From assembly GCA_947626115.1 (NCBI GenBank), contig CANQQX010000003.1:415-64414 (forward strand): a stretch of DNA of 64,000 nt, in the 5' to 3' direction. Under the pieces are notes generated by a model that had not been told where the DNA came from, searched no databases, and saw only the letters and a list, made by a program, of their open reading frames with translations. Position numbers and translations under genes: made by a program. Of this stretch, positions 19,619 through 60,984 are shown in pieces. The DNA is from an uncultured Bacilli bacterium. GTDB lineage: Bacteria > Bacillota_I > Bacilli_A > RF39 > UBA660. Positions within the stretch are counted from its first letter, which is position 1, and each line of letters starts with the position of its first letter.

Positions 19619-19733
19619 CTTTCTCCTTTTTCTAAAAATAATATTTTGTACTGCATGTAAATCCATTATAAAAGATTATTTGACAAAAAGCCATAGGAAG
19701 TTTTGACAAGTTTTGTCAATTCGTGTAAAGTTA

Positions 19734-19750
19734 TGTCGAAATATGACGAA
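19734..19750 (+). promoter_or_regulatory. two tandem 0A-box-like heptamers upstream of spo0A
   Basis: TGTCGAA (19734-19740) and TGACGAA (19744-19750) have starts 10 bp apart. Both match the 0A-box consensus TGNCGAA. Confidence 0.5.
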
Positions 19751-19756
19751 AATATT

Positions 19757-19788
19757 AAAAAAACAGATAAATTTTTATTTTTATCTGT
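19757..19788 (-). terminator. rho-independent terminator after the 86-aa ORF
   Basis: Stem ACAGATAAA/TTTATCTGT (19763-19771 and 19780-19788), followed on the minus strand by a run of seven U. Confidence 0.6.
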
Positions 19789-19818
19789 CATATTTTGTTT
19801 GATAATTTTATAATTTTA

Positions 19819-20079
19819 TTAACGGCCTTTTATTTGTGGTTCTTGTTCAAGATATCCCTTACTTGTTAAAATATTTTTAATGTAATCTAAATTAGCATAC
19901 TTAATATAATATTTTTCGGTTTTACTTGGATTTTTTGATATTAACATGATAAATGTTTTATATTGTTGAGCCAATATATCTAATAATGATGAATAATTGG
20001 GATCACTTTCATCTATTATCATTATTTTTTTACTTATATTTTCCATTGAAATATCCAATTTCTCTAATTCTTCTTTCAT
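19819..20079 (-). CDS. hypothetical small protein
   Basis: 86-aa ORF with no recognisable motif, downstream of the two paralogs. Confidence 0.5.
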   Translation of the reverse strand: MKEELEKLDISMENISKKIMIIDESDPNYSSLLDILAQQYKTFIMLISKNPSKTEKYYIKYANLDYIKNILTSKGYLEQEPQIKGR

Positions 20080-20139
20080 TAATTACCTCCTAATTAATAA
20101 TAATATAATTTTTACTTATATGTCAAATTATAGAATAGA

Positions 20140-20664
20140 TTATTTACATTTTTGTGAAGTTTTAGTTATAACTTCTAATCTTTGCAATTCCATATAATAA
20201 GCATTTCTTATATCTTGTAAAGAGCAATCTATTATTAAACTAGTTCCTCTTTCACCACTCAAAATTCTGCCTATATTATAATCTACTAAAAATGTATTTA
20301 TATAGTCAATAACTCTTCTTGCTTCTTCAAATGATAATAAAATTGGTAAATCAAATGTGTTACTTTTATTGACAAATTCTTCAAATGTAAGATATGAATT
20401 ATTTTGATAAATACCTGCTTGAATATCATATATATACTCTAGTTCTAAAGGATTATCTTTATTTGTTTTCAAATGTGCTGCTATTAACTTAGGAAATACA
20501 TCTTTAATAAATTTAATAAATGCAATAGAAACAGTTTCATCACTATAACTATTTTCAAAATCTAATTCTGCAGCAAGATAAGAAGTAGTATTTTTTATAA
20601 CATCATCATTAATTGCTAGTATATCTTCCCCATTATTTTCATAAAAATTTACAACTTTTTCCAT
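20140..20664 (-). CDS. unknown cytoplasmic protein, member 1 of the YY-x-ELQR family
   Basis: 174 aa with FIKFIKDVFPKLIAAHL...IRNAYYMELQRLEVITKTSQK. It is a paralog of 20710-21222, 38342-38941 and 59097-59843. Confidence 0.7.
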   Translation of the reverse strand: MEKVVNFYENNGEDILAINDDVIKNTTSYLAAELDFENSYSDETVSIAFIKFIKDVFPKLIAAHLKTNKDNPLELEYIYDIQAGIYQNNSYLTFEEFVNKSNTFDLPILLSFEEARRVIDYINTFLVDYNIGRILSGERGTSLIIDCSLQDIRNAYYMELQRLEVITKTSQKCK

Positions 20665-20709
20665 AACCCACCTCAGTAAAATTTATTCTAATATTATTTC
20701 ATATCAATG

Positions 20710-21222
20710 TCAACGAAAAGATTTTTGAGAAGCATTGGTTAGAACTTCTAATCTTTGTAATTCCATATAATAAGTATCTATAGCATAATCGATATTAGTA
20801 TTAAAATTGATACTAAAGCCAAATTTATTACTTGATATATTACCTAAACCATAATCTTCAATAAATGATTTTAAATAATATATTAATTCTAAATACTCTT
20901 CTTCATTAGTAACTACTTCATTTAAAAATAGTTTAGCAAATGGTGTCTCTGGCATAGCAAAGATAATAACACCCATTTGATTCATAATAGCATATTCTAA
21001 ATTAAAACTATTACCTTTATTTTTAGAACTTGCTATATTAATCATTCGTGGATATATTTCATTAATAAAATAATTATATAATTCTACTCCCTTATCTACT
21101 GAATTTTCTTTGCTATTTTGAACTATTTTTCTTATTTCCGGATAAGTATAATTAGTTACTATTTGATCTTTATTATCTAATTCTTCTTCAAAATATTTTT
21201 TTAACTCTTCGCTATACTGCAT
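20710..21222 (-). CDS. unknown cytoplasmic protein, member 2 of the YY-x-ELQR family
   Basis: 170 aa with YNYFINEIYPRMINIA...AIDTYYMELQRLEVLTNASQK. It is a tandem duplicate of the gene downstream. Confidence 0.7.
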   Translation of the reverse strand: MQYSEELKKYFEEELDNKDQIVTNYTYPEIRKIVQNSKENSVDKGVELYNYFINEIYPRMINIASSKNKGNSFNLEYAIMNQMGVIIFAMPETPFAKLFLNEVVTNEEEYLELIYYLKSFIEDYGLGNISSNKFGFSINFNTNIDYAIDTYYMELQRLEVLTNASQKSFR

Positions 21223-38275: not shown

Positions 38276-38341
38276 CTTCTAACATTATATTATAACTAAT
38301 TTAGTATGACTTGTCAAAAAAAGATAACACTTGTTACCATG

Positions 38342-38941
38342 TTATCTTTTCATAATATTTTTTGTCAATTTCTCACCATTTACATTTGTATTTTCTTCTT
38401 GTTGAATTGAATCTATTAATTCATCAGAATATTGAAATCTTTGTAATTCACCATAGTAGGCATTTAAAATATCACCTATTGTTAAATTATCGAAATAATA
38501 TTTTTTTCCACTTAAATATTCATTACTTGTATCGACACCACATCGTGAGAAAAAAGTATCTAAATAATTTATGAATTCCTTATAAATTTCATAATCATTA
38601 AATGAAATAGATAACATATTACCTGTTTTTTCACATTGAATTATAACATAAGAATTATATGATACCTGTAAATCGTAATCAAATGCTTTTTGCATCGCTT
38701 TTACTAAATTTAATGCGTTGTTAGTTTCAATATGTTCTTTTATAAGCATAGGTAAAATTTTTGTTATAAAAAATCGATAATAATAGTATGCCTTTGTTGT
38801 ATTAACATTATATTTATTTTCAGATTTTGCTTCACAATATTGAGAATTAATTAATTTTTTTCTTTTCTCTTCTTTTAATTTATTAACTTCATTAACATTA
38901 GCTTTTACTTTACTATTTAAAATTTCATATAAGTTTTCCAT
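38342..38941 (-). CDS. unknown cytoplasmic protein, member 3 of the YY-x-ELQR family
   Basis: 199 aa with YRFFITKILPMLIKEHI...ILNAYYGELQRFQYSDE. Confidence 0.65.
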   Translation of the reverse strand: MENLYEILNSKVKANVNEVNKLKEEKRKKLINSQYCEAKSENKYNVNTTKAYYYYRFFITKILPMLIKEHIETNNALNLVKAMQKAFDYDLQVSYNSYVIIQCEKTGNMLSISFNDYEIYKEFINYLDTFFSRCGVDTSNEYLSGKKYYFDNLTIGDILNAYYGELQRFQYSDELIDSIQQEENTNVNGEKLTKNIMKR

Positions 38942-58566: not shown

Positions 58567-59013
58567 TTAAACAAAATTTGTTAAATTTCGGGCTTTTATT
58601 GTATTATTTAACTTCAAATTATTTAGTAACAATTTTTCAAAACTATATTTTGATAATTTAGTATAAAATATTTGCTTATTATTACAGTTTATTTTGAGTA
58701 AATTAGCCTGTTCTTCATAATCTATAACTTTATTTGCCACAATTAACAAAGTATTATTATTTCTAATTGAATTAAGTGGTAACAAGGTAATACTTTCATT
58801 AATAACTATTGGAACACGATATTTAACATTTAAAATATGTTGACTACTTTTAATTCTGCCACTTAAAGTACTACCATAAAAATTACAATTATTGTTAAGA
58901 ATAGTTTTAATATTTTTGTTAATAACTCTTATTTTATCAACATCATAAATAATAGTTTTCTTATCTAATTTTCTTAAGGCAACTGTTTTTTCAGTAATTA
59001 TATAGTTATTCAT
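58567..59013 (-). CDS. ComK-family protein (short, 148 aa)
   Basis: NNCNFYGSTLSGRIKSSQHILNVKYRVPIVINESITLLPLNS...YSFEKL aligns by eye with B. subtilis ComK (SCRFFGSSYAGRKAGTYEVTKISHKPPIMV...FPTLS...NSFENQ). Confidence 0.6.
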   Translation of the reverse strand: MNNYIITEKTVALRKLDKKTIIYDVDKIRVINKNIKTILNNNCNFYGSTLSGRIKSSQHILNVKYRVPIVINESITLLPLNSIRNNNTLLIVANKVIDYEEQANLLKINCNNKQIFYTKLSKYSFEKLLLNNLKLNNTIKARNLTNFV

Positions 59014-59076
59014 AGAAAATCTCCTTTAAAAATTAGATGTTACTATAGCATATAAAAAGGAAATAATTTGTCGAAT

Positions 59077-59092
59077 TATTTCCCGGGAAATA
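59077..59092. promoter_or_regulatory. perfect Noc-binding-site (NBS) palindrome
   Basis: TATTTCCCGGGAAATA in the gap between family member 4 and the ComK-like gene. Confidence 0.75.
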
Positions 59093-59096
59093 TTTT

Positions 59097-59843
59097 TTAT
59101 CTACTTTTACCTTGTTCTAATGCTTTATTAACTCTAAATTCTTCTTCAAAGTTAGTAATAAATTTTATCATTTCTGGAGTAAGACCTATATTTAATAATG
59201 CTTGAATATAATTTTCTATATCTATATTATTTAATTCATCTGTTATAAACAAATTATTTTTTTCTATTAAATTAATTACTCTATATAATATATTAGCAGG
59301 TATCATATCTAGATTTTTTTTAGAAATATAGCCACTATTATACAAAAAGCATAAGTTTTCATAAGAAATTAATTTAGCATATCTATCTTTATCTCTATCT
59401 AAAAATTCTTGATAATCTTTTTTAACACTATCAACTGTTTTTTTATAATAATCTAACATTTGTAATTCTTGATAAATTGCACTTACTAATTCTTTAGTAG
59501 TACAATGAAATTCAATAATTATTTTTTTACCACCATCTTTAAAATTAACAGTATCAGATTCTTTTATATTTCCTAAATTATAACTTGTTAAAAAATTACT
59601 AATATACGGATAAATTTCATCATAACGATAAGTATTAAAATTAAAATAATCATTCTCTTTGGTATTTTTAAATTTATAATAGTAAGAATTCCAATGATTT
59701 ATTAATTCTTCTAAAAATCTTTTATATTCACATCTTTCTATTAAATAATTAGTATCATATTTTTCAATTTTTAATAATTCAAAATTATAAGAAGAAGCAT
59801 TTTTTACATTATGTATTTCTTCGTTTAAATTATTTTTAGACAT
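59097..59843 (-). CDS. unknown cytoplasmic protein, divergent member 4 of the YY-x-ELQR family with a C-terminal extension of about 100 aa
   Basis: Translation contains YDEIYPYISNFL...LVSAIYQELQMLDYYKK. The ATG at 59843 follows AAGGAAGGGA; the longer track ORF overlaps dnaN. Confidence 0.6.
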   Translation of the reverse strand: MSKNNLNEEIHNVKNASSYNFELLKIEKYDTNYLIERCEYKRFLEELINHWNSYYYKFKNTKENDYFNFNTYRYDEIYPYISNFLTSYNLGNIKESDTVNFKDGGKKIIIEFHCTTKELVSAIYQELQMLDYYKKTVDSVKKDYQEFLDRDKDRYAKLISYENLCFLYNSGYISKKNLDMIPANILYRVINLIEKNNLFITDELNNIDIENYIQALLNIGLTPEMIKFITNFEEEFRVNKALEQGKSR

Positions 59844-59865
59844 TTTACCAAAACTCCCTTCCTTT

Positions 59866-60984
59866 TTAATATGTTTTAACAGGTAAAATAAGTTCAATTA
59901 ATGATTCATCTTTGACTGATTTTATTAAAATTGGTTTATCATCACTATTAATTAATAACAATATATTATCGTCTTTAATAACTTTTAAAGCTTCAAGCAT
60001 ATAACGAGATGAGAATGATATTTCTAATTTTTCTTTATTACTACATTCAATAGCTAAATTTTCTTCAGTTTTACCTATTTCACTTGCACTTGATGTAATA
60101 GTCATTTTTTTACTATCAATAACTACTCTAACAATATTTTTATCTTTACTTTGAGCAAGTAAAGAAGCTCTATCAATGGCATCATTAAATGCTTTTAAAT
60201 CTAGATTAATCATATATGCAAATTCATTAGGTATAAAATGATTTGTATCAGGATAAGTACCACTTAATAAATTTGTTTGAAAATCTATATTATGATATTT
60301 AAATAATATTTTGTTACTAAATATATGCATAACAACATCATCTTCAGTTGTTAACATTTTTTCAAACTCACTAATACTTTTACCAGGGATAACTATATTA
60401 ATTGTACTATTAACAATGTTATCAAGTTTTAAATTTTTCTTAGCAAGTCTATATGAATCTGTTGCAATACATTCTAGATTATCTCCTAATATCTTTAAAT
60501 TAATACCAGTAAGTAATGGTCTTACTTCTTGCGTAGATACTGCATATACTGTTTCATTAATTATATCTTTTAATGTTTCAGCTTTAATTGTTATAGGTTC
60601 TTTACTATCTTCTAAAGTAATATGTGGATAATCATTAATATCATAACAATTTAAACTATATTCATTATTATCAGTATATATTTTTATTTTACTAGTATCT
60701 TCTGCTTCAAAAGTTATAATATCTGATGGCATTTTTCTTATAATATCTAAGATAAATTTACTTTGAATTATCATACTACCAGTATTCTCTATCTTTTTAA
60801 TATCTTTTTCATTAATAAATACTTTAATAGTAAGTTCTGAATCACTAGCAAGTAAACTTAATCCTTCATTAGTAAGATCAAATTTAATTCCATTAAGAAT
60901 AGGTATAGTCGTTCTTGTTCCTATTGCTCTAGTAACATTAGTTAACCCTTCTAATATAATATTCTTATCAATAACAAATTTCAT
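59866..60984 (-). CDS. dnaN: DNA polymerase III subunit beta (sliding clamp)
   Basis: 372 aa starting MKFVIDKNIILEGL..., downstream of dnaA. Confidence 0.96.
   Translation of the reverse strand: MKFVIDKNIILEGLTNVTRAIGTRTTIPILNGIKFDLTNEGLSLLASDSELTIKVFINEKDIKKIENTGSMIIQSKFILDIIRKMPSDIITFEAEDTSKIKIYTDNNEYSLNCYDINDYPHITLEDSKEPITIKAETLKDIINETVYAVSTQEVRPLLTGINLKILGDNLECIATDSYRLAKKNLKLDNIVNSTINIVIPGKSISEFEKMLTTEDDVVMHIFSNKILFKYHNIDFQTNLLSGTYPDTNHFIPNEFAYMINLDLKAFNDAIDRASLLAQSKDKNIVRVVIDSKKMTITSSASEIGKTEENLAIECSNKEKLEISFSSRYMLEALKVIKDDNILLLINSDDKPILIKSVKDESLIELILPVKTY

Follow-up and report, generated by a model that had tools for sequence, protein, structure and literature searches.

We have analysed a 64,000-nucleotide stretch of the genome of an uncultured Bacilli bacterium (contig C3, CANQQX010000003.1, positions 415-64414; hereafter the window), in which four open reading frames (ORFs) of one protein family, called here A, B, C and D, lie at three junctions between housekeeping genes. 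All four ORFs, and their lengths, are as an initial annotation of the sequence had described them (Table 1), and all are on the minus strand. B and A lie between pgk and spo0A (Spo0A, Pfam 3e-38); C lies between tatD and a 3D/yabE-like gene of 183 amino acids (aa), which is followed by ksgA; and D lies between dnaN and a ComK-family gene (Pfam 1e-15), with recF beyond it, the flanking genes too being those first named. The source assembly, a metagenome-assembled genome (MAG), comprises 1.27 Mb in 56 contigs at 26% guanine plus cytosine (GC), and since it is 93% complete the counts of family genes given below are lower bounds. Related records that carry a name are MAGs of ‘uncultured Bacilli bacterium’ from rabbit gut.

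The four proteins were rightly recognised as paralogs: their similarity is beyond chance, with BLASTP values for the pairs that include A given in Table 1, and 3e-4 for C-D, 3e-4 for B-C and 3e-3 for B-D. Identity between A and B, the closest pair by BLASTP, is nevertheless only 33%. D can be aligned only across the C-terminal half of the domain and is without the F-I-x-x-[IV]-x-P helix motif that had been described as common to all four. An alternative 266-aa version of D would begin at a TTG at 59897 and overlap dnaN; the ATG at 59843 is the more likely start, because the ribosome-binding site GGAAGGGAG precedes it and there is no overlap with dnaN. The family is also larger than the four genes first counted. 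A first hidden Markov model (HMM) recovered the window's four genes only, while an iterated profile, built from 144 domains of metagenomic relatives, added three further members in tandem on contig C33 (10799-11731, 11727-12227 and 12269-12760), directly upstream of an RNase J-like gene. The first of this trio encodes a two-domain protein of 311 aa (E 8e-11) which was absent from the profile training set, and the trio bears three family hallmarks (a Y..F helix, Y[VL]..FL and [CP]YY.ELQ). The genome therefore holds at least seven member genes.

We conclude that the members are genuine genes of an undescribed domain family, with ~130-160 residues per domain. The domain unit opens with a long N-terminal helix, which is followed by a beta-meander, another helix and a beta-hairpin, and it ends in a C-terminal helix with the motif [AT]-Y-Y-x-E-[LM]-Q-R-[LF]-[EQ]-Y; the domain occurs singly, in proteins of 150-250 aa, or in tandem, in two- or three-domain proteins of ~300-440 aa. 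An AlphaFold2 model of A, made from a 19-sequence alignment, had a predicted local distance difference test score (pLDDT) of 72.7 and a predicted template-modelling score (pTM) of 0.70, its first 39 residues being of low confidence and residues 40-174 averaging ~85 pLDDT. The core of this model has a helix (42-67), three strands (75-86, 89-96 and 103-105), a second helix (112-128), two further strands (132-137 and 140-147) and a last helix (149-173), which bears the YYMELQRLEV motif. A two-domain member of 309 aa, modelled from a 39-sequence alignment (pLDDT 80.8), contains the family unit twice, with a ~40-residue helix opening each. D combines one family domain (~residues 1-145) with a C-terminal region of ~100 aa which is specific to D-type proteins and conserved in five of them; a sequence-profile search of the PDB with this region gave noise only.

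Across the 144 domains the conserved columns are F (92%), I, F (85%), G (82%) and Y-Y-x-E(88%)-x-x-Q-R, with no conserved constellation of His, Cys, Ser or Asp; outside the hydrophobic core, conservation is limited to the E-x-x-Q-R patch of the last helix. The median isoelectric point (pI) of the domains is 5.1, and it lies below 6 in 88% of them. This acidic pI, together with the lack of conserved catalytic-type residues, argues for a non-enzymatic protein that does not bind DNA. The proteins have no hydrophobic segment (maximum Kyte-Doolittle 19-residue window <=1.39), in agreement with the earlier view that they carry neither signal peptide nor transmembrane segment. The C-type proteins (P0017, P0024, P0039 and P0043; window 38342-38400) additionally have a strongly conserved acidic-then-basic tail, [FY]-[ST]-D-E-L-I-x-S-[IV]-Q-E-E-E-N-T-N-V-[ND]-G ... 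K/R, which is kept where the remaining protein is only 25-30% identical and which may be a short linear interaction motif.

Nor did wider searches recognise a known domain, as the initial annotation had also found by eye. The family members here had no match in Pfam or NCBIfam at E<=1, and six members had none in PADLOC; PHROGs gave noise only (E>=0.005), as did a sequence-profile search of the PDB with the domain. No Pfam family recurs among 39 + 21 members, in which a lone Imm40 match (E 0.024, in 1/39 members) was seen and no Pfam match reached the gathering threshold. In Foldseek comparisons of both AlphaFold models with the PDB, and of the single-domain model with BFVD, nothing was found at E<=1e-3 in either (best E 0.03 in the PDB and 0.003 in BFVD, template-modelling (TM) score <0.3). 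Among the weak matches LAGLIDADG meganucleases were the most frequent with both models (I-DmoI, I-OnuI, I-SmaMI and I-PanMI); the LAGLIDADG, KH and secretion-chaperone entries were set aside as too weak for use.

When 1.84 billion representative proteins were searched exhaustively by HMM, only 80 clusters were found at E<=1e-3, most of them ~300-aa proteins with two copies of the domain and one with three; no source assigns a name to any of these proteins. At the level of the order, matches at 1e-5 were found in 3/145 genera and, within the genus, matches at 1e-3 to the first, weaker profile in 14/25 genomes. The family has no relatives in IMG/VR, among INPHARED phages or in PLSDB plasmids. 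Member-carrying contigs are all of 24-28% GC, including one labelled ‘Muribaculaceae’. This 67-kb contig (CAZVUP010000004.1; locus L032), binned as ‘uncultured Muribaculaceae’ at 27.5% GC, holds a tandem array of four two-domain members; it shares synteny with a JGI contig (L084), and is therefore probably mis-binned. By these searches the family is confined to a few genera of uncultured, genome-reduced, low-GC gut Bacilli, and with its tandem duplications and two-domain fusions it bears out the initial description of a lineage-specific, expanding family.

In 17 related genomes we identified dnaN, tatD and pgk and recorded what comes after each (G numbers below denote genomes, G000 being the source, and L numbers the loci read). 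In eight congeners (G004, G008, G009, G012, G014, G018, G019 and G023) the comK-like gene comes immediately after dnaN, with recF next; most of the eight also have the 3D gene and ksgA immediately behind tatD, and spo0A immediately behind pgk. This upholds the claim that the family genes are wedged between core genes, and does so more directly than the comparison with B. subtilis on which that claim had been based. More distant genera keep the same order, with the addition of one ~240-aa gene between pgk and spo0A (L076, L078, L079, L081 and L082); it is a candidate tpiA, its identity being unconfirmed.

Comparison of occupied with empty sites places the inserts closely. Most empty spacers at the dnaN site run from the stop codon through a terminator hairpin with a T-run, the palindrome ATTTCCCGGGAAAT and a TTCGACA...TATAGT promoter to the comK-like gene, the palindrome and both boxes being present in most empty-site spacers examined. 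Here D starts 22 nt past the end of dnaN and no such hairpin remains, but the palindrome and promoter survive intact behind D. At the empty pgk site the stop codon is followed by a hairpin and Spo0A boxes; in the source genome pgk lacks a hairpin of its own and is followed by B, A and an 86-aa ORF, and the TTCGTCA / TTCGACA region downstream of the hairpin that closes this unit aligns with the empty-site spacers of sister species. The 86-aa ORF has no match in Pfam, PHROGs or PADLOC. The spo0A upstream region (window 19667-19760; empty-site spacers L068-L075), with its tandem TTCGTCA / TTCGACA Spo0A-box-like motifs and TTGACAAAACTTGTCAA palindrome, is highly conserved genus-wide, whether or not a family insert is present. 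At the tatD site a hairpin-like sequence can be seen by eye at the end of tatD, ahead of C, and a single shortened fold of it showed no stable hairpin. The hairpin after C resembles the ancestral tatD terminator of the empty sites in G023 and G009 in its position and its T-run/TTGACA junction (by eye, unaligned), and its U-run merges into the promoter of the 3D gene. Hairpins lie downstream of C, of the 86-aa ORF and of D. Promoter and terminator calls (Table 1) are from sequence alone, and promoter-like matches in these regions are no commoner than in shuffled sequence and so suggestive only.

Table 1. Family members and associated features of the window (all on the minus strand; BLASTP values are E-values)
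Feature	Position	Strand	Remarks
Member A	20140-20664	-	174-aa ORF, in tandem with B
Member B	20710-21222	-	170-aa ORF, first gene after pgk; BLASTP to A 2e-16
Member C	38342-38941	-	199-aa ORF between tatD and 3D/yabE-like gene; BLASTP to A 3e-8
Member D	59097-59843	-	248-aa ORF from ATG; BLASTP to A 9e-7
Repeat copy at 3′ end of A	20144-20204	-	~56-nt direct repeat, by blastn
Repeat copy at 3′ end of B	20716-20777	-	~56-nt direct repeat, by blastn
Terminator-like hairpin and U-run closing the pgk-B-A-86aa unit	19762-19789	-	fold -9.1 kcal/mol, z = -3.5; just ahead of the Spo0A-box region of the spo0A promoter
Insertion of ~350 bp, present here and absent from G016	19802-20150	-	blastn gap; unique in the genome
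86-aa ORF in the ~350-bp insertion	19819-20079	-	own strong ribosome-binding site
Promoter-like box of the 86-aa ORF	20097-20126	-	11/12 match
Promoter-like TTGACA-17-TAGAAT upstream of A	20685-20713	-	11/12 consensus match; overlaps the B stop codon
Perfect TTGACA-17-TATAAT promoter of the 3D/yabE-like gene	38289-38317	-	12/12; kept downstream of C; same arrangement at empty sites
Intrinsic terminator-like hairpin and U7 overlapping the C stop	38312-38350	-	fold -11.2 kcal/mol, z = -3.6
Retained ancestral spacer downstream of D	59058-59092	-	Noc-type palindrome ATTTCCCGGGAAAT, hairpin and U-run, then comK-like promoter
dnaN-D spacer, 22 nt, with ribosome-binding site	59844-59865	-	dnaN hairpin of empty sites absent; G000 only AAAGGAAGGGAGTTTTGGTAAA

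Each insert thus lies immediately behind the upstream stop codon, before the ancestral terminator and the promoter of the next gene, and the family genes are accessory insertions with no part in the pathways of their neighbours. The suggested co-expression with core genes is plausible for D (given the 22-nt spacer and the missing dnaN terminator) and for B and A (no hairpin after pgk). However, A and the 86-aa ORF each have a strong promoter-like box ahead of them as well, and C may be a separate transcription unit. The same junctions in other genomes hold unrelated ORFs: a 400-aa secreted-looking ORF in G008 (tatD, L052), a 170-aa ORF in G018 (tatD, L053) and a 205-aa ORF in G284 (dnaN, L045). 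The junctions therefore act as general permissive spots for accessory genes. These three ORFs were considered as remote homologues, the G018 ORF having an FL..YNLG-like stretch, and were rejected by the iterated HMM, with hhalign giving <=2% for those of G018 and G284.

The family tree contains site-specific clades for dnaN (0.96), tatD (0.996) and pgk (A plus B, 0.96), each with a G020 orthologue, so that each site was colonised once, before these species split. B has orthologues at the same site in G016, G011, G024 and G020. At the occupied sites of related genomes the flanking proteins are 67-99% identical, as against 27-57% for the family proteins. In a species tree of five markers, whose deeper nodes are weak, G008 (family at 0/3 sites) is sister to G020 (3/3, with two more members upstream of tilS-ftsH) with a support of 1.0, and this pair is sister to the G000/G011/G016 group (support 0.955). 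Occupied and empty states are therefore interleaved on the species tree, which points to loss or recombinational replacement.

Copy number has also changed within sites: by the A/B duplication at pgk; at tatD in L033, where a 378-aa two-domain fusion accompanies a single C-type gene; and at dnaN in G016, where D and a second D-type gene are found with a short AAA_15/21 ATPase between them. This ATPase (L016:5387-6250, at the dnaN-recF junction) has 287 aa, with AAA_15/AAA_21 assignments and PADLOC matches of the mad3/PtuA/AriA type at 1e-16 to 1e-13, and is not in the source genome. The 3′ ends of A and B have in common a 56-nt direct repeat of 87-95% DNA identity (blastn), and their near-identical AYYMELQRLEV and TYYMELQRLEV tails, which reflect this repeat, are consistent with A-B gene conversion and not with protein-level constraint alone. 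In G011, which is without A, the deletion breakpoint lies inside the 56-nt repeat and leaves a chimeric tail, so that the repeat accounts for the loss of A. Synonymous divergence (dS) between A and its G016 counterpart is 0.03 (97-100% nucleotide identity) against ~0.25-0.33 (86-93%) in the flanks, and that of C is 0.11 against 0.27-0.28 in tatD and metG; these low values indicate a recent recombinational exchange of the insert itself. The ratio of nonsynonymous to synonymous divergence (dN/dS) is 0.14-0.43 for B, C and D, compared with 0.01-0.21 for ten flanking genes: B, C and D are under purifying but relaxed selection. The value for A, 0.87, rests on 11 and 3 substitutions only. Taken together, copies have been duplicated in tandem, fused, homogenised or deleted via their conserved 3′ ends, exchanged between close lineages, and lost in many species.

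Other placed members of the family all lie co-directionally beside housekeeping genes, namely rplJ-rplL/rpsG-fusA, prfB, hpf-secA, tilS-ftsH, def, a pcrA/uvrD-type helicase, glyS (in two organisms), another class II aminoacyl-tRNA synthetase and RNase J. When the non-family neighbours of 15 loci were compared all-against-all, none recurred; the loci have only housekeeping genes in common. An origin in mobile elements was considered and rejected, the family having no viral or plasmid relatives and no flanking repeats besides the intragenic 3′ repeat.

Neutralising proteins typically occur in arrays and as domain fusions, recombine between paralogs, diverge fast and are patchily distributed, as the members of this family do, and on these grounds we favour, tentatively, the proposal that the family consists of non-enzymatic acidic binding proteins which neutralise or sequester a variable partner in an immunity- or inhibitor-like way. 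Transcription of the housekeeping operon, often with the gene's own promoter in addition, would express the insert without disturbing its neighbours, because the insert sits between stop codon and terminator or promoter. The products, uniformly acidic, soluble and cytoplasmic and presumably non-enzymatic, would then act by binding a variable protein partner and so neutralising or sequestering it, and their target could be something encoded elsewhere in the genome or by other organisms. Of binding or neutralisation, catalysis and DNA binding, the first is the most likely.

Polymorphic-toxin immunity arrays, such as EsaG/DUF600 beside type VII toxins in Staphylococcus, and the SUKH and Imm families, offer a close likeness to such habits. 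In common are small acidic cytoplasmic proteins, tandem arrays of paralogs, the fusion of two domains in one chain, copy number altered by paralog recombination, fast divergence and patchy distribution. Habits of this kind are seen here in the A/B pair, the C33 trio, the four tandem two-domain genes in L032, the 378-aa fusion in L033 and in orthologues that drop to 30-57% identity beside flanks of 67-85%. In contrast to these arrays, our family lies in the tails of housekeeping operons and not at toxin or secretion loci, and has no sequence or fold match to the Imm, SUKH or DUF600 families.

A number of points weigh against the proposal that these are neutralising proteins. No toxin is adjacent in any of ~12 contexts, and the LXG (PF04740), WXG100 (PF06013) and RHS (PF05593) domains are absent from the 93%-complete assembly, control genomes being positive. 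With neither a toxin neighbour nor a delivery system, there is no room for a classical toxin-immunity pair, and any protective role would have to be an ‘orphan’ one. A 374-aa neighbour in L032, with sub-threshold MORN_2/RHS hints, was considered as a toxin and rejected, as it is missing from the syntenic L084. An ATPase of PtuA/AriA-like defence type stands beside family genes in G016 only, between its two D-type genes, and no partner recurs across contexts. The proposed function is drawn from habit, no partner, toxin or target having come to light, and for want of a toxin, secretion system or partner gene we keep our confidence low. The site-specific orthologues predate the divergence of G000 and G020 and have been kept under purifying selection, which a cellular role peculiar to the lineage would explain as well. 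In G008, G018 and G284 the junctions hold unrelated ORFans, and the housekeeping context is less informative than it seems, because a ~1.2 Mb genome consists mostly of housekeeping genes. A remote structural relative may have been missed, the models being moderate (pLDDT 73 and 81) and the structure search covering the PDB and BFVD.

The neutralising proposal may be carried a step further, to a picture which we think unlikely as a whole: that the family forms a diversifying intracellular repertoire for recognition or neutralisation, carried on integrase-less ‘operon-tail cassettes’. Such cassettes would be single genes lodged behind the stop codon and ahead of the terminator of essential genes; they would draw their expression from the essential operon, be shuffled through their conserved 3′ ends and reach other species through homologous recombination in the highly conserved flanks. 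If true, this would give a 1.2 Mb genome without mobile elements an exchangeable pool of accessory genes, and should the proteins turn out to neutralise toxins or phage-encoded proteins, they would add a new family of immunity type to a poorly known but widespread group of gut Bacilli. Whatever their function, a domain family missing from Pfam and NCBIfam is now defined by its consensus, boundaries and one- and two-domain architectures, and the assignment of these genes to the surrounding glycolysis, sporulation, replication or translation operons is corrected. The loci also provide a clean, dated case in which very small genomes that have neither transposons nor prophages can still acquire, amplify, exchange and discard accessory genes, the mechanism being insertion into the narrow gap between stop codon and terminator, with the conserved flanks serving as recombination handles.

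Alternatively, the proteins might be lineage-specific regulators or adaptors of the genes beside them, with spo0A as the target of B and A, dnaN and the comK-like gene as that of D (in replication or competence), and the C-terminal region of D-type proteins as an output or DNA-binding module. The three sites do lie <=40 kb from the origin, beside spo0A, the ComK-family gene and dnaN; positional orthologues older than the G000/G020 split have been retained under purifying selection; each species examined has the family at all three sites or at none; and the extra ~100-aa region of D-type proteins is conserved. However, the eight congeners listed above have the same spo0A, comK-like, dnaN and recF genes and no family member at the three junctions, and other members stand beside the unrelated glyS, prfB, hpf-secA, rplL, RNase J and def genes. 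The D-type C-terminal region matches no helix-turn-helix or other family, and the acidic pI speaks against DNA binding, so that we think such regulation rather unlikely.

Less likely still is a role as small, acidic, chaperone- or adaptor-like dimers for specific clients, for example the variable secreted fibre and adhesin proteins made by these Bacilli. The modelled secondary-structure order of A, alpha-beta-beta-beta-alpha-beta-beta-alpha, recalls the layout of class I type III secretion chaperones (CesT/SycE/SrcA), which also have a size of ~15-20 kDa and acidity in common with the family. The family proteins are small and cytoplasmic too, and the Salmonella secretion chaperone 3epu was the best hit of this type. 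That match is weak and non-significant (E 0.19, TM 0.20-0.24), the family unit has a long extra N-terminal helix, and no dedicated secretion system was identified. Chaperones are, moreover, normally encoded beside their clients, and no client gene is consistently adjacent here.

The frequency of LAGLIDADG enzymes among the weak Foldseek matches, and the parallel between one-domain (~170 aa) and two-domain (~300 aa) forms in our family and the homodimeric (I-CreI-type) and two-domain monomeric (I-DmoI/I-OnuI-type) enzymes, raise the idea of selfish, free-standing genes of a divergent LAGLIDADG type that would invade intergenic spots beside conserved genes and move among related species by cleaving the empty allele. 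Single, partnerless genes beside highly conserved genes, their interleaved presence and absence, and the recent recombination tract over A would all suit homing. We nevertheless hold this to be very improbable: in structure only the alpha-beta-beta-alpha-beta-beta-alpha order is common to both, the fold matches being non-significant (E 0.06-0.6, probability <=0.13, TM 0.11-0.22, root-mean-square deviation >14 A), and no LAGLIDADG_1/2/3 Pfam match was found in 8 + 39 + 21 members even at E<=1. The first helix conserves F, I and often P (F-I-x-x-[IVL]-x-P-x-[LI]-I) with no conserved G or D/E after it, so that both the LAGLIDADG motif and its catalytic acidic residue are missing. DNA-binding nucleases are usually basic, whereas 88% of the domains are acidic by pI, and tandem arrays with long vertical retention under purifying selection are atypical of homing endonuclease genes.

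That the ORFs are spurious or decaying, chance frames in AT-rich spacers as their lack of annotation in any source might suggest, is effectively refuted by the 80 homologue clusters with conserved motifs, the dN/dS well below 1 for B, C and D, the ribosome-binding sites and the confident AlphaFold cores, and frames of 170-250 codons are not expected by chance, because AT-rich DNA is rich in stop codons.

The ComK-family gene next to D (window 58567-59013, 148 aa; loci L036-L051) lies between dnaN and recF in 16/16 genomes examined of the bacterial family, a position which in B. subtilis is that of yaaA/rlbA.

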